A stretch of 64,000 nt of DNA. It comes from an uncultured Bacilli bacterium. GTDB taxonomy: Bacteria > Bacillota_I > Bacilli_A > RF39 > UBA660. Below the pieces are notes generated by a model. That model searched no databases and was not told the origin of the DNA. It worked only from the letters and a program-made list of their open reading frames with translations. The stretch spans positions 43,770 to 107,769 of the forward strand of contig CAKOTD010000002.1 of the NCBI GenBank assembly GCA_934120015.1, read 5' to 3'. A program made the translations under genes and the position numbers. Shown here one piece after another: positions 4,663 through 33,393 of the stretch (position 1 is its first letter; every line of letters begins with the position of its first letter).

Positions 4663-4663
4663 A

Positions 4664-5122
4664 CTAATCTTCCTTCTCTAATTTTACCTTAATAATTGCT
4701 TCCACCTTTTTATGTAAATTAATTTTTACATCATAATACCCAAGTGATGATAAAGTAATATCAAGATTTATTTTCTTCTTATCTATATCAAATCCTTTGG
4801 TTTTTAGTGCATCTGATATTTGTTTTGTACTAATACTACCAAAGACTCTACCATCTTTACTAGTTTTTACTTTAAATTTAAGCTCTATCTTAGCCAATTT
4901 ATCTTTTATTTTTTCACATTCTTTAATTAAAGAAGCTTCTTCTAATTTACGATTTTCTATCTCATTTTCTAAACGTTTTACACCAGTTTTTGTAGCCATT
5001 ACTGCATAACCATTCTTTATGAGATAATTCATTCCATATCCATCTTTTACAGTTATAATTTCATCTTTTTTACCTTGACCCTTTACATCCTTTAATAAAA
5101 TTACTTGCATATTAACCTCCAT
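4664..5122 (-). CDS. rplI: 50S ribosomal protein L9
   Basis: 'MQVILLKDVKGQGKKDEIITVKDGYGMNYLIKNGYA' is the canonical L9 N-terminus. The true start is probably the internal Met at 5110; the 5 extra N-terminal residues are likely an ORF-track artefact. Confidence 0.9.
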   Translation of the reverse strand: MEVNMQVILLKDVKGQGKKDEIITVKDGYGMNYLIKNGYAVMATKTGVKRLENEIENRKLEEASLIKECEKIKDKLAKIELKFKVKTSKDGRVFGSISTKQISDALKTKGFDIDKKKINLDITLSSLGYYDVKINLHKKVEAIIKVKLEKED

Positions 5123-14279: not shown

Positions 14280-16247
14280 CTAATTAGATTTTAATTCAAA
14301 CAAAATATCTCTTAATTCTGTTGCTCTTTCAAAATCAAGATTTTTAGCGGCTTCTTTCATTTCTTTTTCTATTTTTTGAAGAAGATTACTCTTTTCCTGT
14401 TTTGTCATTTTTATTTCACTTTTTTCTTCTGTTTCTTTGTTATTAGTAATTACTTCTCTAATTTCTTTTATAATTGTTTTCGGAATTATACCATGAACCT
14501 GATTATACTTTTCTTGAATATCTCTTCTTCTATTTGTTTCACTTATTGCTTCTTCCATAGAATCACTTATAGTATCTGCATACATAATTACTCTTCCGTT
14601 TGCATTTCTTGCTGCTCGACCAATTGTCTGAATTAAACTTCTAGTGCTTCTTAAAAATCCTTGTTTATCCGCATCCAATATTGCTATAAGACTAACTTCT
14701 GGTATATCAAGACCTTCACGAAGTAAATTAATTCCCACTATAACATCATACTTTCCAATTCTTAAGTCTCTAATTATTTTTAATCTTTCAAGTGTCTTTA
14801 CTTCACTATGTAAGTAGGCAACTTTAATATCTAGTTTCTTCAAATAATCTGTCAATTCTTCTGACATTCTTATTGTAAGTGTTGTTATTAAAACTCTTTC
14901 ATTGTGCTCTTTTCGTGTATATATTTCAGCAACTAAATTATCTATTTGATTTTCTGATTTTCTTACTTCTATTATTGGATCAAGAAGTCCTGTTGGTCTA
15001 ATAATCTGTTCAACTACATTTTTGCTTTTTGATAATTCATAATCACCTGGAGTTGCTGATACATATATTACATTATCCAATTTTTGCTCGAATTCTTCAA
15101 ATTTTAAAGGTCTATTATCCATTGCACTGGGTAATCTAAATCCGTAATCTACTAACACTTTTTTACGAGCTTGATCACCATTATACATTGCCTTTACTTG
15201 GGGTATTGTTACGTGTGATTCATCAATTACAAGTAAAAAATCTTTTTTAAAAAAGTCTAATAGAGTTGTTGGTGTTTCACCTGGACCTTTTAAGGCAAGA
15301 TGTCTTGAATAATTTTCTACACCATGACAAAATCCTGTTTCTGACAACATTTCTATATCATAATTAGTTCTTTCCATAAGGCGTTGATATTCTAATAACT
15401 TGTTTTCAGATTTAAATTTTTCTAATTGCTCACTTAATTCAAGTTTAATATTTTCTATGGCTTTTTTTAATTTTTCTTCACTTGTTACAAAGTGACTTGC
15501 AGGGTATATTGTAATGCTTTTTTTACTTTGTGTAACTATGCCCGTAAGGGTGTCAAACTCACTAATTTTCTCCACTTCATCACCAAAAAGTTCTATTCTT
15601 ATACCTTTTCCATGTTCACTTATGGGAATAACTTCTATAATATCTCCCATTACACGAAAAGTACCACGCTTAAAATCAATGTTATTTCTTTCATAAAACA
15701 TATCAATAAGACGTTCTAATATTTCATCCCTATCAATTTTGTCTCCTTCATTTATAATTAACAGCTTTTTACGATATTCATCTATTTCACCTATACCATA
15801 AATACAGGATACAGAGGCTACAACTATTACATCATTATGATCTAATAATGCTGCTGTTGCTGCATGTCTCAATTCATCTATTTCATCATTAATTGAAGAA
15901 TCTTTTTCTATATATGTATCTGTCTTAGCAACGTATGCCTCTGGTTGATAATAATCATAATAAGAAACAAAGTAACATACGTGATTGTCGGGGAAGATCT
16001 CCTTGAGTTCCGCGTATAATTGCCCTGCAAGTGTCTTATTATGAGCTAAAACTAAAGTCGGTTTATTCACTTTTTCAATTACGTTTGCAATCGTAAAAGT
16101 TTTTCCAGTTCCCGTTGCACCAAGTAAAACTTGGTATTTCTCACCATTTTCAATTCCTTTAACTAATGAATTTATTGCCTCTGGTTGATCTCCACTAGGT
16201 GTATATTTTGAGTGAATTTTGAACATTTTTGTATCTTTTTGTTCCAT
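14280..16247 (-). CDS. uvrB: Excinuclease ABC subunit B
   Basis: 655 aa with the helicase motifs '[12 protein letters not shown]' and DESH, and a C-terminal UvrB/UvrC interaction motif. No uvrA is adjacent. Confidence 0.93.
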
Positions 16248-16426
16248 ATTGTCCTCCTTACTACGATTATTACCAGCCTAAAATTCGTATCCAATTATCA
16301 AAAATTCGTATCCTAATTCAGTTTTATAACCCCAAAAATGTGTCTTTTTTGCTTGGATACGAATTTCAGCCACAAATTGACTAAATAAGACTAAATAAAA
16401 CCAAGTAAAACTAAATGTTTTCCAGT

Positions 16427-16491
16427 AACTTATTTTAACACTAATTTAACAATAAAACAAGGAAAGCTACAACAGTCTTTCCTTATTATTA
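16427..16491. repeat. Left 65-bp direct repeat (att-like) of integrative element; contains terminator hairpin AAGGAAAG-N10-CTTTCCTT
   Basis: AACTTATTTTAACA…TTTAACAATAAAACAAGGAAAGCTACAACAGTCTTTCCTTATTATTA is repeated at 22135–22199 with 3 mismatches. Confidence 0.8.
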
Positions 16492-16500
16492 TGTATATAT

Positions 16501-17799
16501 TTAATATAAATATTTTGCCAAAATATTATTTGTATCTATGTCTATTATTGTATCTGATGAATACAAGTTTTCATCTGGTTTAACTAATTCAATAAATGAA
16601 TTTAATTCTTTATTACAATCAACAATTATTTTATTCTTATCAAAATATGTGCTTGATGTAATTATTGTTGATGAGTGTCCCAGTAGTTCTGATACAGCCT
16701 TTAAATCGTGATTATTCATTAATAATAATGTGGTATATGTATGTCTTAAATCGTGAAATCTAATTTTTGGTAAATTATTTTCTTCTAATAGTTTATCATA
16801 ATATCTTTTATGAAACCCTTTACTTCTTGGATGCCCATAGGTAGAACAACAAATAAATCCTAAATCAGTAAAGGGAGTTGTTTTATCATTTATTCTCCTT
16901 CTTCTATTTGCTTCATAAATTTTTCTTTGTTCTTGTATTGCCTCAAAAACCATATCAGGTATATCAAGTACCCTTTCACTTGAAAAGGTTTTTAATTTTA
17001 TTTCCTGTTTCGTGTATGTTTTTTTCTTACAATCTTCTTTTGATTTATTTGGATCAATTCCTAGTTGTCTTTTTAAATATAATTTTCTATTAACATAATC
17101 AATATCTGAATATTTTACTCCATTAATTTCTTGCTTTCTTAATCCCATCAACAACGCAAATAATATATGTAAATATATTGGTGTTTCTTTACTTTTCTCA
17201 ATTATTAATTTTATCTGTTCAATATTAAATGTCTTTTCTATATCAATTACTTGAACCTTATTATATGATGTATCAATTCCTTTCGGAAGTCTAACATTTA
17301 ATGTTGGATTAGTATTAATTAAATTATTCTTTTTAGCATATTCAAATGCTGAATTTAATACTACTTTTGATAACTTTGCTATCGATTTATATTTAATTGA
17401 AACTTCATTATAAAATTTTTGAATATGTCCCATATTTATTTGATTAATGTAGTAATTTTTGAAATATGGGATAGCATAATTATTAACTACATTTCTATAT
17501 GACATATAACTATTATATGTTAAATTAGGTTTCATCACTATTTCTAACCAATATTCAAAATACTCACTACTTTTTATTTTTGGATAAACAACATAGGAGT
17601 GGTTGACTAATTGTGCTACAACTTTGTCTCTTTCTAGGTTTGCCTCTTTTTTTGTTTTAAAACCACCTATTTGCCTTATTTCTTGCTGTCCATCTATAAA
17701 TGTCAGCTTAACCTTAAATCCGTATTTATCTTTTAATTTTAATACAGAATATACTGTATAATCATTATAAACTTTCAGCATTTGTTCTTTTGTTAGCAT
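16501..17799 (-). CDS. int: Tyrosine-type site-specific integrase (phage/Tn916-like, arm-binding N-terminal domain)
   Basis: The C-terminus carries 'HDLRHTYTTLLL…LGHSSTIITSSTYF' (HxxR, LGH, catalytic Y); the N-terminus has an AP2-like 'GFKTKKEA' arm domain. Confidence 0.88.
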   Translation of the reverse strand: MLTKEQMLKVYNDYTVYSVLKLKDKYGFKVKLTFIDGQQEIRQIGGFKTKKEANLERDKVVAQLVNHSYVVYPKIKSSEYFEYWLEIVMKPNLTYNSYMSYRNVVNNYAIPYFKNYYINQINMGHIQKFYNEVSIKYKSIAKLSKVVLNSAFEYAKKNNLINTNPTLNVRLPKGIDTSYNKVQVIDIEKTFNIEQIKLIIEKSKETPIYLHILFALLMGLRKQEINGVKYSDIDYVNRKLYLKRQLGIDPNKSKEDCKKKTYTKQEIKLKTFSSERVLDIPDMVFEAIQEQRKIYEANRRRRINDKTTPFTDLGFICCSTYGHPRSKGFHKRYYDKLLEENNLPKIRFHDLRHTYTTLLLMNNHDLKAVSELLGHSSTIITSSTYFDKNKIIVDCNKELNSFIELVKPDENLYSSDTIIDIDTNNILAKYLY

Positions 17800-18992
17800 T
17801 TCGTATCACCATCCTCAATAGCAAAAATATTATTCATAAATGCCAATATTTTATCTTTTTCATCCATTACCTCACAATAATATTCAAATGTTGTATGGAT
17901 TGATCTATGCCCTAGAAATGCTTGTATTTTAGCAAGTGAAGCTCCACTTTCTAATAGAATTGTTGCACACATATGTCTTAAACCGTGTACGGTCAAATCC
18001 GGTAAACTTAGTTGTCTGCATATTTTTATTATTCTAGCATTTAAAGCTGATTGAGAATGCACTACCCCTATTTCTGTGCAAGATATATAATTATTATCTA
18101 TATATTTATTTTTATAAATTGCTTTATCTAAATTTACTTTTTCATTTCTTTTCTCTAATTCTTCTATAATTATATCGGGAACTTTAAGTGTTCTTATACT
18201 TTCAGGAGTCTTTGGATTTCTTTCTACTAATGAACATTTTGTAATTTTACTAGTATTTTTTTCTAATTCATATTCTTTTGCTATTTGTCTTTCCACTTTC
18301 ACAGTTCTATTTTCCATATCAAAATCAGAAAATTTAAGTCCCATTATTTCACCCTTACGAAGTCCACAAAATAATCCTAATAATATTTCAAGATACCAGT
18401 TTGATGATTGGGATGCTGTTAAAAATCTCTTTAGTTGCCTTTTAGTATATACTCTAATTTTAGGTTTTTTTCTTCTGTATTGTTTAGTATCTAAAGATGG
18501 ATTGTGTGAAATATATCCACCGATCAACGCATCTTTCATTGCCATAATTATAATCATCCTTGCAGAATACCCGCCACTTTCTGTTAAATTAGAAGCTCTT
18601 TTTATTATATCGTCTAAATAATCAGTTGTTACTAAATTTATTTTTAAATTATATTCAATACTAGGCACGATTAAATTATATATAATATATGAACTAACCA
18701 TTTTTGTTGTTGTTTCTATTCGTTCAGAATATATATTTTCAAACCAATAAATCAAGTAATCAACAAACATTATATCTTTGTTAATGCTTACTTCATATTC
18801 TCTACTTTTTTCTTTAAATTTTTCTTCATATATATTATAATCTTTTACAGCATCTTGTTCCGTTACATATCCCTTAACTTTTCCATATTTAGTTGATCCA
18901 TCTTCTAACCTTTCTTTATATCTAAATCCCCACGATGAACCTTCAAAGAAAGCTATCCCACTTTTTCCCAAAGTTAGTTTTGTTTTTCTCAT
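17793..18992 (-). CDS. Second tyrosine-type site-specific integrase (overlaps downstream integrase by 7 bp)
   Basis: Carries 'VHGLRHMCATILLESGASLAKIQAFLGHRSIHTTFEYY' and an N-terminal 'GSSWGFRYKERLEDGSTKYGKVKGYVTEQDA' AP2-like arm domain. Confidence 0.88.
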   Translation of the reverse strand: MRKTKLTLGKSGIAFFEGSSWGFRYKERLEDGSTKYGKVKGYVTEQDAVKDYNIYEEKFKEKSREYEVSINKDIMFVDYLIYWFENIYSERIETTTKMVSSYIIYNLIVPSIEYNLKINLVTTDYLDDIIKRASNLTESGGYSARMIIIMAMKDALIGGYISHNPSLDTKQYRRKKPKIRVYTKRQLKRFLTASQSSNWYLEILLGLFCGLRKGEIMGLKFSDFDMENRTVKVERQIAKEYELEKNTSKITKCSLVERNPKTPESIRTLKVPDIIIEELEKRNEKVNLDKAIYKNKYIDNNYISCTEIGVVHSQSALNARIIKICRQLSLPDLTVHGLRHMCATILLESGASLAKIQAFLGHRSIHTTFEYYCEVMDEKDKILAFMNNIFAIEDGDTKC

Positions 18993-19153
18993 AAAATATC
19001 TCTCCTATGACACTTGATATGACTCTTGATAACCATTTATCCAATTATCGAAGGCTTGTTTTGGAACTTTGTATATTTTTCTGTTGCATTGTAAACTTTT
19101 TTTCTATGGGAAGCTTTACAATTTTATATTGAAAATTATAAATTTACATTATA

Positions 19154-20314
19154 TTATTCAACTATATTTTTTAAATTTTCTTTTTTAATATTGAAATTGA
19201 TTCCAATAGTTGAAATCATAGATAATATAAATATTATATAAAATACCTTATCTTCAATAAAAATGCTTACTATTGCAAGAAGGAAAAATACAACTACTTC
19301 TGTAAAACATAAACTCATTTGACCTACTGCTGATAAAAGGTCACTATCTTCTTTTGAATTTCTGATAATATTTTGAATTGATGTCTGAATAGATGTTTCA
19401 TATACCTTTGTAAAATTATTGCTTAATGTATTATTTATAGATATTATTACTTTATTTTTAGAAAATAAATATATCCCTGTTATTGTAGTCTTAATAACTG
19501 ATACTAAATTATTTGATTTTGATAAATTTTTATCAGAATATTTTCCAACCAATGTTATAGTAACTATTTGCAATAATAGTGATACTATAACTATTGAAGA
19601 AAACACTGAAAAGTTTTTTAAACCTATATATAAGTAAAGTGGTGCAAATTGTTTTTCTATTATTTGATTTGTAGTTAAAGCATAAATTCTTTTATATCTG
19701 CTTTTAGTTGTAAAAATATATTTCATAGTGCCTTTAAATGCGCTTGTTTTATTCTCTATTTTATAATCTATTTTTTTAATAAATATATATTGTAATACAA
19801 AAAATATAGTAATTATTGTAAATAATATTATATTATTTGCTGTTATTACACTCCATGCAACTAAACAACTTGCTAATGCAGTTCCTATTATATTACTTAT
19901 GTTTATAAAACCATTATATCTTCCCATATGCTCTGTATCTACATACTTACTAGATAATGAATCTTTAGATGGATTAGAAAATCCCATAAATCCCATTGCC
20001 AATATAAATATAATTATATTTTTGTATAAATTTGTTCCATCTAACATCATATATGCACAAATAATATTAAACATATTAGATATTAGGATACATTTTGCTA
20101 TTCCTAATTTTGAAGATATTGTTACAAATAGTGGTGTAGTAAATGCTGTTAGTCCAAATCTTAACCCATATATTAATAGTATAAGCCATATTGGTATTCC
20201 ATTTTTATATAACATAACTGTTCCAAATGTTCCTATCAAAGTATTTGCAAAACTATATGATATAGTACTCAAATACATATATTTATATTCTTTTTTTTTA
20301 AAATATTCCTTCAT
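19154..20314 (-). CDS. Polytopic membrane transporter, probably MFS-type (cargo gene)
   Basis: 386 aa with about 10–12 predicted TM helices and short connecting loops. Its function cannot be assigned from the sequence. Confidence 0.5.
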   Translation of the reverse strand: MKEYFKKKEYKYMYLSTISYSFANTLIGTFGTVMLYKNGIPIWLILLIYGLRFGLTAFTTPLFVTISSKLGIAKCILISNMFNIICAYMMLDGTNLYKNIIIFILAMGFMGFSNPSKDSLSSKYVDTEHMGRYNGFINISNIIGTALASCLVAWSVITANNIILFTIITIFFVLQYIFIKKIDYKIENKTSAFKGTMKYIFTTKSRYKRIYALTTNQIIEKQFAPLYLYIGLKNFSVFSSIVIVSLLLQIVTITLVGKYSDKNLSKSNNLVSVIKTTITGIYLFSKNKVIISINNTLSNNFTKVYETSIQTSIQNIIRNSKEDSDLLSAVGQMSLCFTEVVVFFLLAIVSIFIEDKVFYIIFILSMISTIGINFNIKKENLKNIVE

Positions 20315-20626
20315 ATTGAACCTCCTATAAATTTGTAAATTATATAATACATTTATTCAAAGAACATGGACACGAATAATTACAAACTATAACAACAAAT
20401 TTACTAAATAAAAATAAGAGTTTCCGTAGCTGAATCATAAAATATTATAACTCAAACCTTTTTTTATGCTTTTCTGTCAACTAAATTTAAACATCATGAA
20501 AAGTTTTATAGATATTTTACACTAATTATTCTTGTTTTACTTAATATCATCAAATATTTATCTAAATCAAATAAAATGTAAGAGCATTAGAAAAACTTTT
20601 TTTCTGTTTAAAGTAATTTAATATTT

Positions 20627-22075
20627 CTATTGAAAATATGGATTTAAATCTATAAAAATAGGTTGTACCCATGCTGTTTTACCATTTTTATCTATTACTT
20701 TTGCCCATACATAATATTCTTCTCCTTGTAGAATATAAGATCCATTTATTATTTCACTACCATCTTTAGAATAAATATTCTTACAATGTCTCATATTTGA
20801 ATAAAATATTATTCTTTCAACAGGTGTAGTTTTAATACTTATTTCTCGGCCACATATTCTATAATCTAGTATTGTTGGACCTGTTGAAGCATAAAATTTA
20901 CCATTTTTAATAGCACTAATTATACTTTCATAATTTTTGGCTGCTTCAACCATTATATATCCACCAAAGCATTTATCATTAATAGTTTGGCTGTAAGGTC
21001 CATGAAAATCATCACCTGCTGTTATACAAAATTCTTTATGATTATTTAATAAAGTTCTTATCAAATGCTCTGAACTATACTCACCAAATTCTTCCAAATA
21101 GTCTTTATGATTATATACTTCAATCATATTATATCCTGAAATCATTAACCATTCTGTATCTGTTAATCTTGAAAATAATGGATGATTTAATTGTATCAAT
21201 GAATATTTTTCTTTTAATTTGATGAGATTTTGTTGAAGTTCAGCAATATTGTTATAATATAATATTTCATCTACAGATTTATTATTTTTTGAAAAACAAT
21301 TAAAATGGACATATGGTCCCTTTTCTTTACTCATACTATTATAAATACAAGATGATTCAATTCCTGGTAATAAAACTAGATTTTCGTGTTGCTGATTATT
21401 ATTAAAGAATTTATCATGATCTGTTATACCAATAAAATCATATTTTTTGCTATCATAAATTTCGGCTAATTCTTTTATACTATACATTCCATCTGATTCA
21501 ATGGAGTGAGTGTGAATATTACCTTTAAGATATTTTTTATCCTCATTGATAAAGACCGTATTTTGAAAACTTATTTCTTTTTTATTTTTCTTATATATAT
21601 CATAAAAATATTTTAGATGTGGAACGATTAAATTAGAATTACAAATATTTATATATTCTTCTTCATTAACAATTTTTACATTAATACATTCTTCGTTTTG
21701 AAGAATAATATCAGCCAAATTAACATTCTTCTTGCATAAATAAACATCTGTAAATTTTGGATATTCTAATTCTTTATCTATTTTCAATTTATATATTTCA
21801 TTTGGAAAAATATCAATTCCAATTTCTTCCTTTACCTCTCTAATTGCAGCATCTAAACTACTTTCATTATAATCAACTACACCTTCTGTACATTCCCACA
21901 TATAAGGATATGTCATTTTATCTGCTCTTTGAGTAAGTAAAATTTCTTCATTACTATTAATAATCCATATTTGAACGCTCAAATCAAATTCATCATTTTG
22001 CTTTTTATATTCAAATCTATCTACAACTTTATTTGTTTTATTTCTATTTTTATCATATATGTTAATTCTTTCCAT
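20627..22075 (-). CDS. Nudix hydrolase – PHP (polymerase/histidinol-phosphatase) domain fusion protein (cargo gene)
   Basis: The N-terminal Nudix box is 'ECTEGVVDYNESSLDAAIREVKEEIGIDI' (GX5EX7REVXEEXGI). The C-terminal half has PHP motifs 'GNIHTHSIESDGMYS' and 'GITDHD'. Confidence 0.7.
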   Translation of the reverse strand: MERINIYDKNRNKTNKVVDRFEYKKQNDEFDLSVQIWIINSNEEILLTQRADKMTYPYMWECTEGVVDYNESSLDAAIREVKEEIGIDIFPNEIYKLKIDKELEYPKFTDVYLCKKNVNLADIILQNEECINVKIVNEEEYINICNSNLIVPHLKYFYDIYKKNKKEISFQNTVFINEDKKYLKGNIHTHSIESDGMYSIKELAEIYDSKKYDFIGITDHDKFFNNNQQHENLVLLPGIESSCIYNSMSKEKGPYVHFNCFSKNNKSVDEILYYNNIAELQQNLIKLKEKYSLIQLNHPLFSRLTDTEWLMISGYNMIEVYNHKDYLEEFGEYSSEHLIRTLLNNHKEFCITAGDDFHGPYSQTINDKCFGGYIMVEAAKNYESIISAIKNGKFYASTGPTILDYRICGREISIKTTPVERIIFYSNMRHCKNIYSKDGSEIINGSYILQGEEYYVWAKVIDKNGKTAWVQPIFIDLNPYFQ

Positions 22076-22134
22076 TATACAGCAACTCCTTTAAATGAGT
22101 ACAAATTAAATTGAATTTGGATACTTTTTCTATC

Positions 22135-22199
22135 AACTTATTTTAACATTTATTTAACAATAAAACAAGGAAAGCTACAATAGTCTTTCCTTATTATTA
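22135..22199. repeat. Right 65-bp direct repeat (att-like) with terminator hairpin
   Basis: Matches 16427–16491 at 62 of 65 positions. It also serves as the terminator of the upstream minus-strand gene 22281–23066. Confidence 0.8.
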
Positions 22200-22280
22200 C
22201 ATATACTTAATACAAATATCTTATATAAAATCTTATTCATATTTATATCAATAAATTTTTCCTTAAGCATTTTCAGAATT

Positions 22281-23066
22281 TTATCTATGTTTTATTATAT
22301 ATTTTGCTTTTTCTTCAGCATAATCACTTATCTTTTCACGATAATTAATACCAATTTCTTGTTCTAACTCTCTTTTGAATGTATAAGAATTAGACATCTT
22401 CTTTACCCAGTCATTTAAAATTTTACATTCTTCTTTTGTTAAATCCTTACATTTTTTCATTTCTAAATATAAGAATCTAGCAATTACATAATTAAGTTTA
22501 GCTCTATTAATATCTTGTGGTCTACTAGACAATAAATATCTATCCATATCACATATATGCATAAAATCACAGGAGAAAAGATAACTACCATCATTTATAT
22601 CCTTTGCTTGAACATGTTGTTCATTTAATCTAGCAAAATCTACCTCTAAATCATTAAATGAATCAACTAATTCACCACATGTAAAACCTCCAATTTTTTT
22701 GTAAATAGGTATTTCTTTATTTTTATCTAAAGTTATATCTTCAATATAATCCATGACATATCCAACATAATTACCATCTATATTATATATAATATCCCTA
22801 GGCTGAACAATTCTATTTAAATCTAAATTATTAATGAATTTAATAAGTTTTTCATAAGTCATTTTATTATTCTTTTTCTGTAATTCTGTACTATCCTTTA
22901 ATATCTTTATAACTCTTTTTTCATCGAGTCTTAAAACAATACCATCAATACCACAACCAACTAATTCAAACTCTCTTACATTCATAATAGTTTTTGATTC
23001 CTTACCAATGACTACTTCTTTAGGTACAAAATAATAAATATATTTATTATTACCCAAAAAAATCAC
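22281..23066 (-). CDS. Hypothetical protein
   Basis: 261 aa with an intact ORF but no confidently recognisable motif; it sits next to the collagen-like protein gene. Confidence 0.4.
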   Translation of the reverse strand: MIFLGNNKYIYYFVPKEVVIGKESKTIMNVREFELVGCGIDGIVLRLDEKRVIKILKDSTELQKKNNKMTYEKLIKFINNLDLNRIVQPRDIIYNIDGNYVGYVMDYIEDITLDKNKEIPIYKKIGGFTCGELVDSFNDLEVDFARLNEQHVQAKDINDGSYLFSCDFMHICDMDRYLLSSRPQDINRAKLNYVIARFLYLEMKKCKDLTKEECKILNDWVKKMSNSYTFKRELEQEIGINYREKISDYAEEKAKYIIKHR

Positions 23067-23280
23067 CCCTCTTTTTTGGGCATACTATACCATAAAGTTA
23101 CACTTTAGTCAATTAGTTTGTTTAATGTTATCGTTTAATGGTAAGAAAAAGATTAATATGTTAGATAATCTTTAAATTTATGAGTTTATTATTAATATAA
23201 TATTTGATTAAATTTTAGATTACTAATTCAATAACTTAATTATATAAATTTACATAATATATTAAAGGAAGGAGAATAAT

Positions 23281-24366
23281 ATGGATAACTGCAATTGCAA
23301 TTCTAATTATGATAGGATTAGAAAAAAAATAGAAGAATGTAATAAAAATATTAAATATCTCTACATCCAAGGACCAACTGGTCCTATGGGACCACAAGGA
23401 AAAGAAGGCATTCAAGGACTTGATGGCAAACAAGGTCCTACTGGACCTACTGGGCCAAAAGGTGAACAGGGTCCTACTACTATTGATATTGGTAAAACTG
23501 AAACAGGAAATCCAAATACTGAAGCAATTGTTCAAAATGTTGGTACAAATAAAAATGTAATACTAGAATTTACAATTCCAAAAGGTCAAGATGGTATTGA
23601 TGGTGATAAAATAGTTATAGGTAAAACTGAAACATTAGATGCTAATGCAAAGGCAAAAGTTGTAGATAACCAAGTTGGAAATATTCATACACTAGATTTT
23701 TATATACCTCAAGGGTTTGATGGTATTGATGGTGATGTAGGGCCGAAAGGTGATACTGGTGAAAGAGGTGAACAGGGGCCGAAAGGTGATACTGGTAAAA
23801 GTGAAGGCATTGAAGTAATTAATACCAAGACTATTGAGCCCGGTGAGTTAGCTGAAGTAAACGATAATTTTGATGGTAATACTCATCATTTGACTTTTTC
23901 TATTCCAAGGGGTGATAAAGGTGACCCAGGTTCACTAGAGCCTGCTTTATATAATGCTTTGATCTTTGTTATTGCACCAGAAACTACTGTAGCTGGTATT
24001 GCCAATTTAGCAACACCAAAAAAAATACCAAATACAAATGAATATTTTACAATTAATAATAGTCGTAATATTAATATAATAAAAGATGGTACTTATGAAA
24101 TAAACTTCTGTGGAAAAATATCAGGTGTTACTTCTACTATCGGTGCTTCATTTTATCTATATGACGTAACAAATGATAAAAAATTAGATAATTTTATATT
24201 TGAACTAAAAAAAGGTAACACACCTGAAATGAATTTTTCAAGAGTAAATATATTAGAAATTACAAATCAAGTAGAATTACAATTAAAAACAGAAATTGAA
24301 AATAATGCAGCTGCTGATATTACTTTTTCAGATATAAGTATATTAATTAAAAAATACAATATCTAA
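23281..24366 (+). CDS. Collagen-like (GXY-repeat) surface protein, BclA/exosporium- or tail-fibre-like
   Basis: Has 'GPTGPMGPQGKEGIQGLDGKQGPTGPTGPKGEQGP' followed by three ~45-aa repeats (…IGKTET…L.F.IP.G.DG.DGD), each ending in a short GXY run, then a non-collagenous C-terminal domain. A strong SD (AAGGAAGGAG) precedes the start. Confidence 0.75.
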   Translation: MDNCNCNSNYDRIRKKIEECNKNIKYLYIQGPTGPMGPQGKEGIQGLDGKQGPTGPTGPKGEQGPTTIDIGKTETGNPNTEAIVQNVGTNKNVILEFTIPKGQDGIDGDKIVIGKTETLDANAKAKVVDNQVGNIHTLDFYIPQGFDGIDGDVGPKGDTGERGEQGPKGDTGKSEGIEVINTKTIEPGELAEVNDNFDGNTHHLTFSIPRGDKGDPGSLEPALYNALIFVIAPETTVAGIANLATPKKIPNTNEYFTINNSRNINIIKDGTYEINFCGKISGVTSTIGASFYLYDVTNDKKLDNFIFELKKGNTPEMNFSRVNILEITNQVELQLKTEIENNAAADITFSDISILIKKYNI

Positions 24367-24448
24367 AATATTCAAGATTATAATTAAAAATATATTAAAT
24401 AAGGAAGCTAAGCTTCCTTTTGTTTTATTATGTTATTTTTACAATTAT

Positions 24449-26173
24449 TTATAATGATTTATGTTCTTTATTTGCATAACTTTTCATATTTTCAAGTATT
24501 ACATTTCTTTTTTCTTGTATTTCTCTTAACTTTATAGTAAGTTCTGTTTCTTTTCCTTCTTTTAATTCATTGAGGCATACAAAGAAATTCATTCCTCCAA
24601 GATATTTATTGAATTCGAAAAATAAATTATTTAAATCGTCAAAATTAGCTTGTCCTACCATATTATATATTGCTTCCATATTATTATTACTTCTACTTTC
24701 AATAATTTGATTTTTATATAAATTTATAAAATCACTAACAAGCATTTTTGTCGTTTGATAACCAGTAGATCCAAATCGTGCCACATTTATATCTGATATG
24801 ATATTTACACCATTATTATGCATACCTCTTGCTATTTCTTGGGCAATCATATCATTTACTATTTCCGCTAATAATTCATACTTTCTCTTACCATCAATTA
24901 AGTTAGCTTGTTCTTTGTACATTCCTGTAATTGGATCATAAATAACATTCCAACCATCCCAACCTCCTCCTACTATTATTTCATTTTTATTTTCACTTGG
25001 AATGGATGTAAATTCATATAAGTGATTAAATTCATGTATTATAAATGCATCTAAATCCTCATAATCATTAGACATATTAATAAGCATTGTTGATTTTTGA
25101 ATAACTTTACCTTCTTTATCTATTATATTTGGAAGAATACATGATGTACCAGATTTATAAAAAGAATATAAATTACCTCCTTCATCAAGAAGACTATTTT
25201 TATTGAACTTATTATCATTATAAACATAATCATAATATTGCTCATAGATTTTCAAATCAACTAATCTCTTAGCTTTTTCTTTATATTCTTTTACTTTGTC
25301 TATTAAATCTTTACTTGGTACTATTGTTTTACATTTTTCATCAGTTAAATAATTATTATAATCATTTCCTAAATCAATGCCTTTTGATTTAAAATACATA
25401 ATTCTATTATTAATTATAGTTTCTTTTTCATATTGATAACCTGTTTCTAATTTTTTATCATTGTTATCACTAAATGCCTCTATTAGAGAAGATGAATGTA
25501 AATTAAAACCATACATTAATTCAAATGTTTTTGATAAATTTTTTAAAACATTACCTGTTTTATTATAATAACCTATTATTGCTTCATATTCTTCTTTTGG
25601 AATATAATTACTAAATTCCTTTAAAAATTTAATTTCTACTTCTTTTTCTAATATTTGTGTTAATTCATCTTGCTTTTTTAATGAATCAGTTTGCTTTTTT
25701 ATTGTTAATAAGAAGGAATTATATTCTTCATTATATCTTTCTATAATAGGTCTAATTTTATCTAATAAAGTTATTTTATCATCAGAAATTTTCAATGAAT
25801 AAGGTATATTTACATCTATTCCATTTTTAAGGTCATCCATCATTTTATAATATGTATGTACAAGTGAAGAATCATAGTTGTTAGTATCAAACAATATATT
25901 TAAATCATCCATACTTATACTTTCTGAAATCTCATTTTTAATTTTATTAACGATTTCTTCTGTTTTAATTCTTTTCATAAACCTTATTATAGTTCCTAAA
26001 TTTTCTATTGGTAAATATGTAATATAAGTAGTATTTTTAAATTTTTGAGTAATATATTCCCTTTTATCCTCACCATAATAGTTTACGAATGCCTCTATTA
26101 TTTTTGGCAATTTTTCTTCAATTAAATTTTTATGATTAAGTATTTTATAATATCTATCTAGCATTAATTTCAC
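24449..26173 (-). CDS. Large K/N-rich cytoplasmic protein with HExxH motif (putative zincin-like)
   Basis: 574 aa with no signal peptide and the motif 'IIHEFNHLYEF'. It overlaps the upstream 98-aa ORF by 20 bp. Confidence 0.5.
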   Translation of the reverse strand: MKLMLDRYYKILNHKNLIEEKLPKIIEAFVNYYGEDKREYITQKFKNTTYITYLPIENLGTIIRFMKRIKTEEIVNKIKNEISESISMDDLNILFDTNNYDSSLVHTYYKMMDDLKNGIDVNIPYSLKISDDKITLLDKIRPIIERYNEEYNSFLLTIKKQTDSLKKQDELTQILEKEVEIKFLKEFSNYIPKEEYEAIIGYYNKTGNVLKNLSKTFELMYGFNLHSSSLIEAFSDNNDKKLETGYQYEKETIINNRIMYFKSKGIDLGNDYNNYLTDEKCKTIVPSKDLIDKVKEYKEKAKRLVDLKIYEQYYDYVYNDNKFNKNSLLDEGGNLYSFYKSGTSCILPNIIDKEGKVIQKSTMLINMSNDYEDLDAFIIHEFNHLYEFTSIPSENKNEIIVGGGWDGWNVIYDPITGMYKEQANLIDGKRKYELLAEIVNDMIAQEIARGMHNNGVNIISDINVARFGSTGYQTTKMLVSDFINLYKNQIIESRSNNNMEAIYNMVGQANFDDLNNLFFEFNKYLGGMNFFVCLNELKEGKETELTIKLREIQEKRNVILENMKSYANKEHKSL

Positions 26174-26450
26174 CTAACCAATCTATAATTTTATTTAAAT
26201 TATCAACATTATTACCAACATATTTACTTTTATTACCATCTATTAATACATCTATTTCATATTCATTACTATCTAATATATTTTTATCATAGCTTTTATC
26301 ATCAAATGATACTAATATATTTAATAGATTTGATATTTGTTCTTTAGTAATATTTATAATTTTATTTTCATAATATACTTTTGATTCATCTATTTTTATA
26401 ATAAATATTTTTAAACTTAGTTTACCATATACAATAACTATTTCATTCAT
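26154..26450 (-). CDS. Small hypothetical protein co-transcribed with the 574-aa HExxH protein
   Basis: 98 aa, first gene of a two-gene minus-strand unit (20-bp overlap suggests translational coupling). Confidence 0.4.
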   Translation of the reverse strand: MNEIVIVYGKLSLKIFIIKIDESKVYYENKIINITKEQISNLLNILVSFDDKSYDKNILDSNEYEIDVLIDGNKSKYVGNNVDNLNKIIDWLGEINAR

Positions 26451-26584
26451 TACTATTCACCATTATTAGTATAACATTTTTTTCTTTTATACAAAGTTTG
26501 TTTAAATTAATTTTACATTAGTTTACAAATTTAAAAATCTAAAATGCTATTTTTATGATATACTATAGTTAATAAGGTAAGGAG

Positions 26585-27976
26585 ATGTTTATGAAGGAAC
26601 ATGAAAGAGAACAATTTTTAATTAGTATTGAAGAAAATATAGATAGAAGTAATACTTTTTTAGATTCTCCCATTATCATTACTAAAAAGAAAGAAACTAT
26701 TAAAATTAACACTAAAGAAATAATTCTTACGCCAAATCCTTTAAATTCTATTAACTTAAAAAATTCATTAGATAATGCTCAAAAGAATTATGTTGGTATT
26801 ATTAAGTATAAAGATAGTGATATTCCAAAAGATTATTATGAAAAATGTATTAAAAACTTTACAAAATATATTAAAGATATTATTAATATGTGTTTTTATG
26901 ATTTAAAATTCGATGAAAATAATATGAACTTAATATATGTTTTAGCTTTAAAAAATATGGAATATTTAAATAATTCTATTGCTGATACAAATAACTCTTA
27001 TAATGAAAAATTAGATAAAATTGAAACAAAATATAATGAACTGATTAAAAATAGACAAAATCAAGCAATTATAGATTCCTTAAATGCACCTAAAACAGTA
27101 ACCTCATATTCATATGATGGACTTTTTGGAGATAAAATTGTTAATAGTTATATAGGAACTTCTAAAAAAATAGATGGTAGTGGATTTAATTCTTTTGATT
27201 TATTAGATAAAAATTATGATAATAATAAGGCTGCTGAAGATACTATTAATAATATATACAATAGATGTATAACAATTGTTAAAAATTTTAATGAGCAATT
27301 ATTTAATTTAATTGTTGTTAAAAAATCTGATGTTTTTAAAGAGGAGAAAGATAATTACTTTGACTATAATTTCTGGATTGAACTTATTAAAATAGCAAGG
27401 AAAGATGAATATAAAAATATTAATAAATGTTTAGAATTCTATAATATTGATATTGCTAAATATATTAAAAAACTTGTTATTGAGAATGCTACTAATGAAA
27501 AAACTTTAGATGAAAATTTAATTAATTTTTATGAAGATAGTTTTTGTAAAATAGATGTTAGTAAAGAGCTTATATCAACACTTACAGAAAATATTATTAG
27601 TGAGATTAATAAAGAAAAAGATATTAAATCTAAAGAGAAGATAGCTAATAAGTCTTTTGAAACATTAACTAATATTCCATATTTAAATAATGATAGTGCT
27701 AATACTATTATTAAAAATGTTAATAATGTGTTAAATGACTATAAAGAAAGCATTAGTGATAAAAAGAAGCTTAAAAATAAAAAAAGAATAAAAAAATCTA
27801 TTCTTATTATTAGTATTATATTAATTATTTTAATATTAATATATTTTGCTTATAAATATATTAATGAAATTGTAAATTTTCTCCCACTATTATTTACAAT
27901 TTTGATTTTATTCTTTATTATTTCCTGTAAATTTAAAATTCTTAAAAAAATTATAAGCTTTTTTCGTGGATATTAA
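26585..27976 (+). CDS. Hypothetical K/N-rich protein with C-terminal double TM anchor
   Basis: 463 aa transcribed divergently from 26450; C-terminus 'SILIISIILIILILIYFAYKYI…LPLLFTILILFFIISCKF'. Confidence 0.45.
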   Translation: MFMKEHEREQFLISIEENIDRSNTFLDSPIIITKKKETIKINTKEIILTPNPLNSINLKNSLDNAQKNYVGIIKYKDSDIPKDYYEKCIKNFTKYIKDIINMCFYDLKFDENNMNLIYVLALKNMEYLNNSIADTNNSYNEKLDKIETKYNELIKNRQNQAIIDSLNAPKTVTSYSYDGLFGDKIVNSYIGTSKKIDGSGFNSFDLLDKNYDNNKAAEDTINNIYNRCITIVKNFNEQLFNLIVVKKSDVFKEEKDNYFDYNFWIELIKIARKDEYKNINKCLEFYNIDIAKYIKKLVIENATNEKTLDENLINFYEDSFCKIDVSKELISTLTENIISEINKEKDIKSKEKIANKSFETLTNIPYLNNDSANTIIKNVNNVLNDYKESISDKKKLKNKKRIKKSILIISIILIILILIYFAYKYINEIVNFLPLLFTILILFFIISCKFKILKKIISFFRGY

Positions 27977-30940: not shown

Positions 30941-32590
30941 TTATTTTTTTATTTTAAAAATCACTTGGTACATATCATCAAAATCAAATTCTTCACTATC
31001 TATTTCAAAATTCATTTTTTCTATTTCATCTGCACATTTTCTAATTTTATTTATAACATCCCTTAATGTAGGTATTTGTGTATCTTCTTCTTCTATCGAA
31101 GGAACTTCTGATTGCTCATCATCAATATCTAATGTTTCTGTTTCAAGTGGTGTTATAACTTGAGCTACTGGAGGCTCTACCTCTTCTGTTTGATTTACAC
31201 TATCTTCGTTTTGATTATTATTTAATGTAGGCTGCTCTATATTCATATCATTAAATTGATTTAAATTAAATTGTGGAAAACTATTCATATCATTTTGAGA
31301 GTTATTACTTTCATAATTACTTTCTTGACTATCAGATACAACATTAAAATTTTGACCAAATATATTTTCTACTGAAGAAGAGGAATCTATTAAATTATTA
31401 TTAATATTATTTTCTGGATTATCAATGTTTTCTTCTATATCATTTTCAGTTTGAAACATATTAAAGAATTTATTTTGTCTTGGATGTTCATTTACTTCAG
31501 TTTCACTTACCTGATTTATATTTGTGTCCATATTTGTATTTTCTGGATTAAAATTTTGTACACTATCATTTATTTGTTCATTATTAAATGAAACATCGTC
31601 TATAATTGGCCCTGGAATAGGATTTTGATAACTCTGTTCTAATGGTTCTACATCATTTACTATTGGAGCTACTGGTATATCAGTTTCATTCATTTCAGAT
31701 TGTTGTATATTATTTTCGGTTGGTAACATATCATCTGTTATTACTGATGCTTGGTCATTTGTATTTTCTGGATTAATATCTTCAAAACCAAAATCTAACA
31801 CTTCTACATCGGCAGATGCATTTGAAGTAGAAACACTATTGTTATTTTGAATAACATTTTCATTGATTTTTGTACTATCATTTGGAATTACAAATGGATT
31901 TGCTGTGTTTGTTAATGATATATTATTTTCTTGAAAATTTTCTTCTATTGGATTTTTATTAAAACTATCAAATACATTTTGTTCTTTTGAATTCAACATA
32001 TTATTTATCTCCTCATCTGTTTTTCTTACTGTAAGTCTTTCGTCAATTATTTTTTTTAACATCTTTTTTTGATCTGATGATTTAAGTCTTAATAATGCTC
32101 TTGCATGACGTTCTGAAATTTTACTTTCCAATAGTGCATCTTGTACTTCATCATCTAAATTTAACAATCTTAATTTATTTGCAATTGTTGATTGTGAAAC
32201 ACCTAGTTTTTTGGCAAGTTCTTCTTGTGTCATATATCCCATATCAAAAATTTTACGATATGATATAGCTTCCTCTATGGGAGTTAAATCCTGTCTTTGA
32301 ACGTTTTCTATAAGAGCTATTTCTGAACTATCTTTATCATTTAAATCAACTATAATTGCTGGTATATTAGTTTTTCCTGACATGACACTAGCTTTATATC
32401 TTCTTTCACCGGCTATAATTTCATATTTATCACCCATCTTGCGAACAATTATGGGCTGAATTACACCATGTTCTCTAATTGATTCTGACAATTCTACTAT
32501 TGCTTTTTCATCAAATTTAATTCTTGGTTGAAAACGATTTGGCAATATGTCCTCTAAATTTAAAAGAACAACCTGACGATCTTCTTTCAT
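30941..32590 (-). CDS. parB: ParB/Spo0J-family chromosome partitioning protein with long disordered C-terminal extension
   Basis: The N-terminal ~200 aa carry the ParB box 'IIAGERRYKAS' and an HTH ('QEELAKKLGVSQSTIANKL'). Residues ~220–500 are a low-complexity N/Q/E/D-rich region, followed by a short ordered tail. No parA is adjacent. Confidence 0.85.
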   Translation of the reverse strand: MKEDRQVVLLNLEDILPNRFQPRIKFDEKAIVELSESIREHGVIQPIIVRKMGDKYEIIAGERRYKASVMSGKTNIPAIIVDLNDKDSSEIALIENVQRQDLTPIEEAISYRKIFDMGYMTQEELAKKLGVSQSTIANKLRLLNLDDEVQDALLESKISERHARALLRLKSSDQKKMLKKIIDERLTVRKTDEEINNMLNSKEQNVFDSFNKNPIEENFQENNISLTNTANPFVIPNDSTKINENVIQNNNSVSTSNASADVEVLDFGFEDINPENTNDQASVITDDMLPTENNIQQSEMNETDIPVAPIVNDVEPLEQSYQNPIPGPIIDDVSFNNEQINDSVQNFNPENTNMDTNINQVSETEVNEHPRQNKFFNMFQTENDIEENIDNPENNINNNLIDSSSSVENIFGQNFNVVSDSQESNYESNNSQNDMNSFPQFNLNQFNDMNIEQPTLNNNQNEDSVNQTEEVEPPVAQVITPLETETLDIDDEQSEVPSIEEEDTQIPTLRDVINKIRKCADEIEKMNFEIDSEEFDFDDMYQVIFKIKK

Positions 32591-32688
32591 ATTTACTCCT
32601 CCTATTTTATTCTTTTACCCTACATATATAATACTATATTTTGGGAAATAATTCAAGAAAAATATTTCCCAAAATAAAAAAGCCATAT

Positions 32689-33393
32689 TTATAAAGGCTT
32701 CTTTTTAATTTCACTACTTGATCTGGGATATTTTTTTTCTGTTGCTTTTTTCTTTTTAAATAGTAACAAATTTCGTTTGCTTTCTTCTTTTGGCAAAATA
32801 AATTCTTTCCTGTCAACTAATTCTAAAGATAATTTTTGCATAGCATTTTTACAATTTTCTAACTCTTCATCAATATTAGCTTTCATTGCTACAAAATTTT
32901 TATTTATTTTGATTATTGGAGCTGAATACTCTAATAATATATTTAAAGATGCTACTGCACGGGCTACTACTAAATCATATTTTTCTCTATTTTCTTTTGC
33001 ATAGTCTTCTATTCTACTATGAACTGCTTCTATATTTTTTAAATCTAACTCTTTTATTACCTCATTTAAAAAGTTAATTCGTTTATTTAAAGAGTCAACA
33101 AGTGTAATATGAATTTTGGGAAATAATATCTTTATAACTATTCCTGGAAAACCTGCTCCTGTACCAAAGTCACAAATATTTTCAATATTATTTAGTTCAA
33201 TTATATAATTTAATGTTGCACTATCATAAAAATGTTTTAGATAAACATCTTCTTTTTTTACTATTCTTGTTAAATTAATCTTTTCATTCCATATACATAA
33301 TAATTCATAATATTTATTTAGTTGTTCTAATTGTTTTTCATTTATCTCTATATTAATTCTTTTTAATTCTTCTATAAATTCCTTAATGTTCAT
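32689..33393 (-). CDS. rsmG: 16S rRNA (guanine527-N7)-methyltransferase RsmG (GidB)
   Basis: 234 aa with the SAM-binding 'ICDFGTGAGFPGI' motif, in the conserved mnmE–mnmG–rsmG context. Confidence 0.9.
   Translation of the reverse strand: MNIKEFIEELKRINIEINEKQLEQLNKYYELLCIWNEKINLTRIVKKEDVYLKHFYDSATLNYIIELNNIENICDFGTGAGFPGIVIKILFPKIHITLVDSLNKRINFLNEVIKELDLKNIEAVHSRIEDYAKENREKYDLVVARAVASLNILLEYSAPIIKINKNFVAMKANIDEELENCKNAMQKLSLELVDRKEFILPKEESKRNLLLFKKKKATEKKYPRSSSEIKKKPL

Follow-up and report, generated by a model that had tools for sequence, protein, structure and literature searches.

We analysed a 64,000-nucleotide stretch of DNA (the window) from an uncultured Bacilli bacterium (contig CAKOTD010000002.1), in which two overlapping tyrosine integrase genes, int2 and int1, lie directly upstream of uvrB. 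Our subject is this pair and the family of uvrB-targeting mobile elements to which it very probably belongs. Read on the minus strand, the order is ORF261, the distal copy of a 65-bp repeat, a Nudix-PHP fusion gene, an MFS transporter gene, int2, int1, the proximal copy of the repeat and uvrB. No GC contrast was found between the element region and its flanks. The features are listed below. L021 and L026, with which many of them were compared, are metagenome-assembled genomes (MAGs) of other species whose UvrB proteins are 75% and 81% identical to that of the window.

14280–15956, minus strand: chromosomal part of uvrB, codons 98–655, host-native; about 70–75% identity to L021 and L026, Pfam UvrB domains intact.
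15957–16247, minus strand: element-borne 5′ part of uvrB, codons 1–97, as given by identity breaks and 19 orphan fragments.
16248–16430, minus strand: leader, read as the int1-proximal arm from its repeated motifs, whose layout is conserved between lineages.
16281–16292 and 16302–16313 (direct) and 16355–16366 (inverted), minus strand: motif A, GGATACGAATTT; all three copies in the 64-kb window lie in the leader.
16369–16378, minus strand: leader motif AATTTGTGGC.
16380–16408, minus strand: leader motif B, three copies of TTAYTTRGT with 10-nt phasing.
16431–16460, minus strand: conserved core TTGTTT-N17-TGnTAAAAT, with a putative −35 at 16460–16455 and −10 at 16437–16432.
16459–16484, minus strand: terminator-like hairpin 3′ of int1, −14.5 kcal/mol, z −4.0, followed by a U tract.
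16501–17799, minus strand: int1, 432-aa tyrosine integrase with a weak Arm-DNA-bind_4 match, a SAM-like core-binding domain and a catalytic domain.
17793–18992, minus strand: int2, 399-aa paralogous tyrosine integrase with an AP2-fold N-terminal domain; 7-nt overlap with int1.
19020–19079, minus strand: remnant of an excisionase-like gene (xis), the last 20 codons (aa 47–66 of a 66-aa HTH_17 protein; tblastn E 1e-7).
19154–20314, minus strand: MFS transporter gene, older-layer cargo by comparison with L035 and L050.
20360–20411, minus strand: degenerate inner part of a distal end, TTATTTAGTAAATTTGTTGT...ATTCGTGTCC, from alignment to eight distal ends and a motif census.
20627–22075, minus strand: Nudix-PHP fusion gene by domain search; it stands where leader, uvrB′ fragment and outer distal end would be expected.
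22126–22252, minus strand: distal repeat copy, with a remnant like the int1 3′ end at 22206–22252, a hairpin at 22167–22192 and a promoter-like core at 22139–22166.

In the window, uvrB (14280–16247) is a complete open reading frame (ORF) of 655 aa with all its domains. Its two parts have different histories. When nucleotide identity to L021 and L026 was followed in sliding windows, it stayed at 97–100% from about 19080 through the integrases, the hairpin, the spacer and the first ~290 nt of uvrB, and then dropped to ~70–75% at 15960–15900. The int2 and int1 proteins of these MAGs are 98–99.5% identical to the window copies (99.3–99.5% for int1). A second pair of contigs gave the same result. 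L013 and L015, which have different chromosomal backgrounds, share more than 11.8 kb of the element at 100% identity, and their identity falls to ~70% exactly at the uvrB junction motif seen between the window and L021/L026.

Displaced copies of the gene end at the same place. A genome scan recovered eight orphan uvrB 5′ fragments upstream of an intact gene, all ending at one nucleotide, immediately after ...TTTGTNTCNTAYTAT. This end point corresponds to position 15957 of the window, the end of codon 97, within F-V-S-Y-Y/D-Y-Y-Q-P-E. All eight fragments run on into a conserved, non-coding distal end of ~135 nt. When metagenomes were scanned with the distal-end sequence, 11 further loci were found, and in every one this sequence comes immediately after a uvrB fragment that stops at residue 97/98.

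The proximal end of the element lies inside uvrB after codon 97 (window 15957), ~470 nt past 16427. The crossover would take place at about 15968–15957, in the F-V-S-Y-Y/D-Y-Y-Q-P-E motif. Since the L021/L026 break, the L013/L015 break and the orphan fragments agree, we take the duplicated unit of the family to be about 510 nt, from the hairpin and core to uvrB codon 97, on sequence comparison; the 65-bp repeat is only its outer edge. Chimeric assembly was considered as the source of the identity breaks and rejected: two independent pairs from different studies share the break nucleotide, and the orphan fragments agree with it.

The 65-bp repeat is conspicuous. Its copies at 16427–16491 and 22135–22199 match at 62 of 65 positions, and the ungapped match extends to 80 nt at 90%. 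With two indels allowed it reaches 129 nt at 83% (16418–16545 against 22126–22252; blastn E 2e-31). A 44-nt core pattern with ≤3 mismatches occurs at these two sites only in the 64-kb window, where none is expected by chance. The hairpin AAGGAAAG-N10-CTTTCCTT is present in both copies; on the gene strand it folds with −14.5 kcal/mol in the proximal copy and −13.7 kcal/mol in the distal copy (z about −4), and a U-rich tract follows each. A consensus terminator scan missed it because of its 10-nt loop. In DNA of 24% GC the consensus promoter and terminator scan was uninformative, with 59 promoter-like sites against 59.7 expected. Two candidates for a third att copy were discarded: 20017–20040 lies out of frame inside the MFS gene and is probably a chance match, and 20381–20417 belongs to the degenerate distal end instead. 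Elsewhere, a weak match to the hairpin and core at 27771–27828 (74.6% over 63 nt, E 0.003) lies within the 3′ part of ORF463, on the opposite coding strand, and may be chance or another relic.

An earlier note on this DNA had reported the repeat with its hairpin, the 7-nt overlap and intact catalytic residues of the two integrases, and mobile-element DNA at the uvrB locus. All of this was confirmed; the repeat is unique to its two sites, and the last point is supported by near-identical modules beside divergent uvrB genes. The note went on to read the region as a self-contained 5.7-kb element, bounded by the 65-bp repeats as att sites, inserted into the terminator between uvrB and its neighbour, regenerating it, and excisable between the repeats. 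The repeats are real and unique in the window and do bracket four genes, and a comparison between L010 and L032, which differ by the presence of the integrases, breaks at the hairpin and core. The interspecies copies, however, continue ~470 nt past the repeat and end at uvrB codon 97, so the element's end lies that far beyond the boundary drawn in the note and the target is not the intergenic terminator; the orphan uvrB′ fragments likewise mark another junction. The cargo upstream of int2 is missing from copies that are 99% identical, xis is truncated, and an empty site was present in no contig of the window's species. As recombination sites the repeats fail too: they are the outer part of the ~510-nt unit, and the distal copy is shortened and includes a remnant that resembles the int1 tail, so it is not virgin target DNA. 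We therefore consider excision between the 65-bp repeats very unlikely.

The four bracketed genes also do not form one unit. The integrase module is 99–100% identical to its relatives, the MFS gene only ~91%, and the MFS gene has a degenerate distal end of its own. The 99% identity to L021/L026 starts at ~19081, exactly where the xis remnant begins. Upstream of this point L021 and L026 hold the full xis, a 72-aa ORF and a PemK gene; no cargo upstream of int2 is common to these copies and the window. In intact relatives a PemK-family toxin gene overlaps an ORF of 64–72 aa immediately upstream of xis (L010:7919–8501, L021:2329–2911, L041:9169–9688; also L013, L016 and L026). PemK and the small ORF are probably an addiction module, which is absent from the window.

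The full excisionase-like gene was found in L010, L013, L016, L021, L026, L041 and L046. This 63–66-aa ORF upstream of int2 matches the helix-turn-helix (HTH) model HTH_17 with 25.8 bits (cut-off 27), is listed under PF12728 in precomputed tables, and in its 66-aa form also matches PHROG 66, excisionase. The family thus has a small directionality factor next to int, of which 20 codons are left in the window copy. The other end is reduced as well. A scan of the window with the distal-end profile returned the leader's own motif, and just the degenerate inner distal end survives; the outer ~95 nt and the uvrB′ fragment are missing. No second uvrB fragment was found in the 64-kb window, only weak Mfd-like matches. 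Domain search found no conjugation or mobilisation genes at 15957–22252. The earlier idea of an intact compact element was thus abandoned: of xis only 20 codons remain, and neither the distal crossover site nor the uvrB′ fragment is left. Since both xis and the distal crossover site are lost, the window copy most likely cannot excise.

The genes between the repeats appear to come from older layers. The distal end relic sits just upstream of the MFS gene. In L035 a copy of this gene with 91.6% nucleotide identity directly follows a uvrB′/distal-end junction, with no integrases after it; in L050 a copy with 92% aa identity lies upstream of another such junction. The MFS gene therefore looks like older-layer cargo, which a deletion has fused to the integrase module, itself a recent arrival. 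Nudix-PHP lies outside the distal end of the MFS layer, ~50 nt after the core of the distal repeat, and also appears to be an older layer. The distal repeat itself holds, in register, a 46-nt stretch like the int1 3′ end (34/46; IDINMNKILYK against IDIDTNNILAK), a score reached by ~0.5% of shuffles or random genomic 63-mers (p about 0.005). Because of this remnant, the distal repeat is probably a leftover of the int1-proximal end of an earlier element, not target DNA.

Exact-protein look-ups with uvrB and int1 gave 7–10 contigs of the species, all with the same structure. The insertion is therefore fixed in the species; the relatives lacking the element, proposed as a comparison, do not exist among these contigs. 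The variant strain L005 is 99.5–100% identical to the window throughout, without contrast between element and flank. Two further differences were noted in L005. At the equivalent of ~15400–15600, a 19-nt indel splits uvrB into ORFs of 273 aa and 365 aa, which could be a real inactivation or an assembly error, and a ~350-nt deletion shortens ORF261 to 141 aa.

We looked up homologues on their contigs: int1 at 72, 69, 67, 51 and 48% identity and int2 at 60%. In all of them an integrase of ~400 aa overlaps or abuts one of ~431–461 aa, a 63–66-aa HTH_17 protein is encoded upstream, and uvrB lies downstream. Together, about nine other backgrounds were examined, at 47–72% int1 identity (L010, L013, L015, L016, L021, L026, L041, L044 and L046/L047), and the xis-like gene, int2 and int1 are directly upstream of uvrB in every one. 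The chromosomal settings include uvrB-lgt-trxB-whiA, uvrB-uvrA, uvrB-yabP-yabQ-divIC and uvrB...hrcA-grpE-dnaK. A single family member accounts for 907 indexed blocks of the assembly collection. Apparently this is a widespread, undescribed element family of gut Firmicutes. The related genomes (GTDB representatives) are recorded as MAGs of uncultured Bacilli and come from the human gut, with samples from the Hadza and from Nepal.

Cargo differs between elements and includes a PemK toxin, ABC transporters, regulators and defence-like genes. L016 carries a VirB4-like P-loop protein (DUF87/AAA_10/TraG) and a CHAP domain, and L041–43 a TraG P-loop protein. Modules that are 99–100% identical adjoin uvrB genes differing by 25–30% at the nucleotide level: the element has been transferred horizontally between species. 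Identical elements beside divergent uvrB genes thus combine site-specific integration with horizontal transfer, as in integrative and conjugative or mobilisable elements (ICEs, IMEs). L010, which is occupied, and L032, which has no integrases, belong to one species (98.9% identity) and cease to be similar precisely at the core, as after loss of the element body with the arm retained; L013, L039 and L024 (~96% identical) likewise show same-species states with and without integrases. In both sets the core, leader and uvrB 5′ part are kept whether or not the integrases are present, as would be expected if this part is indispensable for uvrB.

These comparisons also bear on whether the region is not mobile at all at present, that is, whether it is an ancient, vertically inherited and domesticated neighbour of uvrB, for instance a uvrB regulator, with duplicated terminators as repeats. 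In favour of this, every contig of the species has the pair at one and the same locus, without GC contrast, and the arm motifs lie in the uvrB leader, where bound proteins could affect expression. On the other side stand identical or 99%-identical modules beside uvrB genes that are 25–30% different, variable cargo including conjugation genes, same-species genomes with and without integrases, and orphan uvrB′ fragments in stacked arrays. We give domestication hardly any credence, slightly less even than excision between the repeats.

Int1 and int2 of the window are 25% identical along their whole length. Pfam PF00589 scores for the two are 61 and 73.5 bits (cut-off 27.1). The RI, HxxR and LGH...Y residues were located in both proteins of the window and of six other lineages, and the catalytic residues of two distant int1 homologues were confirmed by direct reading of the C-terminus; both integrases thus carry the R...HxxR...H/W...Y signature of the tyrosine recombinase superfamily. 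AP2-like, arm-binding N-termini had been proposed for both. For int2 this holds: its N-terminus models confidently, and the best structural matches are AP2 domains, along with the arm-binding domains of the Tn916 and HPI integrases. For int1 it is weaker, with a sub-threshold PF14657 match and a non-specific fold search, while int1 family members carry PF14657. The N-terminal sheet-plus-helix domain typical of arm-type integrases is thus present, with weaker support in int1 than in int2. The closest characterised integrases are ≤29% identical to int1 or int2, and the best full-length solved relative in the PDB is Tn1549 Int. Among 180 weak tblastn matches, all at ≤29% identity, only three were Staphylococcus plasmids. 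NCBIfam Xer models match the C-terminal catalytic segment only, far under their cut-offs.

The suggestion that the integrases form a conserved pair elsewhere was borne out at uvrB in all backgrounds examined. Pairwise identities of int1 and int2 co-diverge with r = 0.95 (21 lineage pairs from seven lineages), and within each element the two are 25–32% identical. On these values the duplication is old, and both genes have been passed on together. The length of the longest contig coincides for at least 16 top matches of the int1-family and int2-family searches. No element with only one of the two integrases was found among the backgrounds examined.

Acceptance of the uvrB junction does not by itself imply a heteromer. 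One integrase could integrate and excise, while the other resolves tandem arrays or multimers, uses a second site, or serves as a non-catalytic architectural or regulatory partner. Multi-integrase elements with one site per enzyme are known, as in tripartite ICEs, and the two motif families in the arms could serve separate systems. Yet the genes overlap or abut in almost every lineage and co-diverge closely, both integrases keep all catalytic residues and an N-terminal DNA-binding domain, and neither a second conserved att-like site nor a single-integrase element was seen in the backgrounds examined. We judge such a division of labour improbable, although less so than the two readings weighed above, and prefer joint action of the pair at uvrB.

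From int1 to the uvrB start codon, all lineages share one layout. The hairpin and the core (TTGTTT-N17-TGnTAAAAT in the clade of the window) come first, and motif B then occurs three times with 10-nt phasing. AATTTGTGGC and motif A in inverted orientation follow, and a direct pair of motif A copies, mostly spaced by 21 nt, precedes the ribosome-binding site (RBS). Most lineages have an extra motif A inside the 3′ coding end of int1. Motif A reads GGAYACGAATTT in the clade of the window, GGGGACGAATT in L044 and ATACGAAT in L046, and within a lineage the copies change concertedly, including the inverted copy and that at the int1 3′ end. The distal end of the elements holds the same motif types as the leader. 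These clustered, position-conserved and lineage-covarying motifs in leader and distal end are candidate arm-type sites. The core is kept upstream of uvrB in related MAGs including L020, where it lies ~36 nt from the uvrB RBS and the leader is absent. Because of this arrangement in L020, the leader is suggested to be arm DNA of the element and the core to be the native uvrB promoter captured by it; the core may well still act as the uvrB promoter.

A 28-nt core pattern also matched four Spiroplasma genomes (L029, L030, L031 and L037) at one conserved locus, as well as two unrelated genomes, L034 and L040. No uvrB or integrase matches were found near the pattern in these six, and the matches were treated as chance or unrelated promoter-like sequence.

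We consider it highly likely that the window holds an immobilised, decayed remnant of a family of uvrB-targeting, dual-integrase elements of gut Firmicutes. An intact module of the family consists of a PemK toxin gene, a 72-aa ORF, a gene for a 66-aa excisionase-like HTH protein, int2, int1, the terminator hairpin, the putative promoter, a leader of ~200 nt densely set with repeated candidate binding motifs, and uvrB codons 1–97; some members carry conjugation genes. The element would recombine with the chromosome between uvrB codons 97 and 98, in the conserved F-V-S-Y-Y/D-Y-Y-Q-P-E stretch. On integration, the resident uvrB promoter and 5′ end would come to lie beyond the opposite end of the element, where they form an orphan fragment joined to the conserved ~135-nt distal end, and uvrB would be rebuilt from the element's copy, so that the host retains a working gene. 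Repeated integrations would push older elements upstream, where they decay. Recombination is predicted to be of the lambda/Tn916 type, with core sites at the junction, arm sites in leader and distal end and a Xis-type directionality factor, and the integrases, two arm-type paralogues that co-evolve, probably work together as a heteromer.

In the window, the newest layer would comprise the truncated xis, int2, int1, the arm and the uvrB 5′ part, and its arrival would be recent because of its 99–100% identity to copies in other species. Most of xis and the whole distal junction would have been lost after arrival. The 65-bp repeat would exist because the int1-proximal end of an earlier element was left behind as the distal copy, whose promoter-like core now lies before Nudix-PHP.

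A more specific and more speculative version, which we think possible but doubtful, is that Int1 and Int2 are an obligate heteromeric lambda-type recombinase in the style of XerC/XerD. Each subunit would recognise its half of the asymmetric core, together with an arm motif family of its own (GGAYACGAATTT against the phased TTAYTTAGT triplet). As the arm sites lie in the leader of the element-supplied uvrB copy, the recombination proteins might also control uvrB expression across many gut Firmicutes.

Several points weigh against the account of a decayed uvrB-targeting element. The crossover is drawn from comparative breakpoints, and no excised circle, attP or experimentally verified attB was seen. 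Differences between the window and L021/L026 begin as early as −10 and −7 nt relative to the junction, which blurs where exactly the strands would be cut and how far the overlap would reach. The data are mostly metagenome assemblies; single contigs in them may be chimeric, but separate assemblies give consistent results. Within the 10-kb flanks, no contig yielded a complete element with its two ends. L020 is the sole candidate for a never-occupied site, and the origin of the leader is argued from it and from motifs shared with the distal end. The core was not listed by the consensus promoter scan, and its −35 hexamer matches at 3/6 positions. The int1-tail resemblance in the distal repeat is modest, and the arm-binding domain of int1 is weakly supported.

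Compared with known systems, the closest parallel in integration is given by the dusA islands, in which a tyrosine integrase uses a conserved stretch near the dusA 5′ end and the island replaces this 5′ end, leaving imperfect direct repeats (Farrugia et al. 2015, PMC4482086). In both cases the 5′ end of a housekeeping gene is replaced by the element's own and the target gene is kept intact. Such replacement is seen here in the full 655-aa uvrB, the 97 codons that travel with the element and the displaced 5′ fragments elsewhere. The dusA islands differ in having a single integrase of another clade (related to Rci), in their hosts (Proteobacteria) and target (dusA), and in a 21-bp consensus att; the uvrB family has two arm-type integrases, occurs in Firmicutes and replaces ~510 nt including the promoter and 97 codons.

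With lambda, Tn916 and Tn1549 the family shares the domain order (N-terminal sheet-plus-helix DNA-binding, SAM-like core-binding, catalytic), repeated motifs in the two arms and, upstream of int, a gene for a small HTH excisionase. Those systems have one integrase, in contrast to the obligatorily retained paralogue pair of the uvrB family, and Tn916 has a relaxed target choice whereas the uvrB family uses a single site.

Tn554, RIT, GInt and SE elements encode several tyrosine recombinases in one operon (PMC10214605). They resemble the uvrB family in adjacent, often overlapping recombinase genes that are kept together and in site-specific insertion. They differ in a third or fourth conserved protein (TnpC, RitC, GinC/D, Tfp/Srap), which is absent from the uvrB family, and lack arm-binding domains, a Xis-type HTH protein and any long duplication of the target; copy-out appears to be the mode of SEs. 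The arrangement had been likened to Tn554, and this likeness did not hold. In place of the Tn554 module of tnpA, tnpB (~630 aa) and tnpC, there are recombinases of 399 and 432 aa with no third small gene after them, and the family has a Xis-type HTH, arm-binding domains and arm-site arrays. Tn554 carries over a 6-bp footprint without a long target duplication, whereas the uvrB family duplicates ~510 nt.

XerC and XerD act at dif as a paralogue heterotetramer, in which each binds one half of the asymmetric core and catalyses one pair of strand exchanges. They serve as the working model for int1 and int2 sharing one asymmetric site, but have no arm-binding domain and are host-encoded housekeeping enzymes. 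In SCCmec, the side-by-side paralogous recombinases CcrA and CcrB are needed together at orfX, and at the fda site of ICESt1/ICESt3, accretion produces arrays with cis-mobilisable elements (CIMEs), integrase-less elements bounded by att sites. Both insert at the end of a conserved housekeeping gene, SCCmec with paired recombinases and ICESt with stacking; Ccr are serine recombinases, and ICESt has a single integrase and a 3′-end target. In the literature outside subscription-only papers, we found no published description of uvrB-targeting or dual arm-type-integrase elements. Mentions of uvrB in PMC11773190 and PMC12441131 are unrelated to such elements.

Accretion is directly visible in related genomes. 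Orphan fragments are stacked in L024 and L035, the pair L025/L021 lies within one MAG, and L025 is a tandem array, a form that looks like attP in an assembly. A parB homologue is 1.9 kb from uvrB in L023 and 14.7 kb away in the window; because of this difference, the zone upstream of uvrB is read as an accretion zone, and much of 16–31 kb is suggested to be accumulated insertion DNA. In larger relatives, no distal direct repeat was found within 10 kb upstream, so these elements exceed the 10-kb flanks.

Other observations were made around the locus. At 22281–27976 there are five consecutive ORFs (ORF261, a collagen-repeat protein at 23281–24366 on the plus strand, ORF574, ORF98 and ORF463) that, the collagen repeat excepted, have no Pfam domain above threshold or PHROG match where tested, and GC drops to 18–20% at 25–28 kb. 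Both findings, taken with the synteny in L023, suggest that old insertions have accreted upstream of uvrB. The backbone of the window is origin-proximal (30941–35263 and 3319–5122), with mnmG, rsmG and a ParB/Noc-like gene upstream and dnaB and the gene for ribosomal protein L9 downstream.

Integrase-less mini-elements of ~2.5–2.7 kb were found at L028:1–2900, L054:1358–4291 and L057:706–3640. They span an orphan uvrB fragment with the distal end, cargo, the core and an intact uvrB. Cargo was annotated in L057 only, where it comprises a 5′-nucleotidase (NT5C) and a GH2 glycosidase. They could be decayed remnants or non-autonomous elements moved by integrases in trans. In the most distant member (L046:11539–12044, L047:2183–4143) the element's uvrB 5′ part is apparently frameshifted, giving ORFs of 50 aa and 566 aa. 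The frameshift is identical in the two assemblies, L046 and L047, so the element-supplied 5′ end may not always restore the gene.

The window copy itself is a fixed, decayed remnant, and its conspicuous 65-bp repeats are not the ends of the element. If the account given here is true, a common mobile-element family of human-gut Firmicutes has so far gone unrecognised. It combines three properties: a single, deeply conserved insertion point in uvrB, replacement of the promoter and the 5′ end that bears the ATPase motif, and arm-type integrases that are always paired. Int1 and Int2 would be a natural system for asking how lambda-type intasomes form from two different subunits. An orphan uvrB fragment joined to the distal end would be a simple marker for the elements, and for graveyards of old insertions, in metagenomes. 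Mobile DNA may also determine how uvrB is regulated in many gut species.

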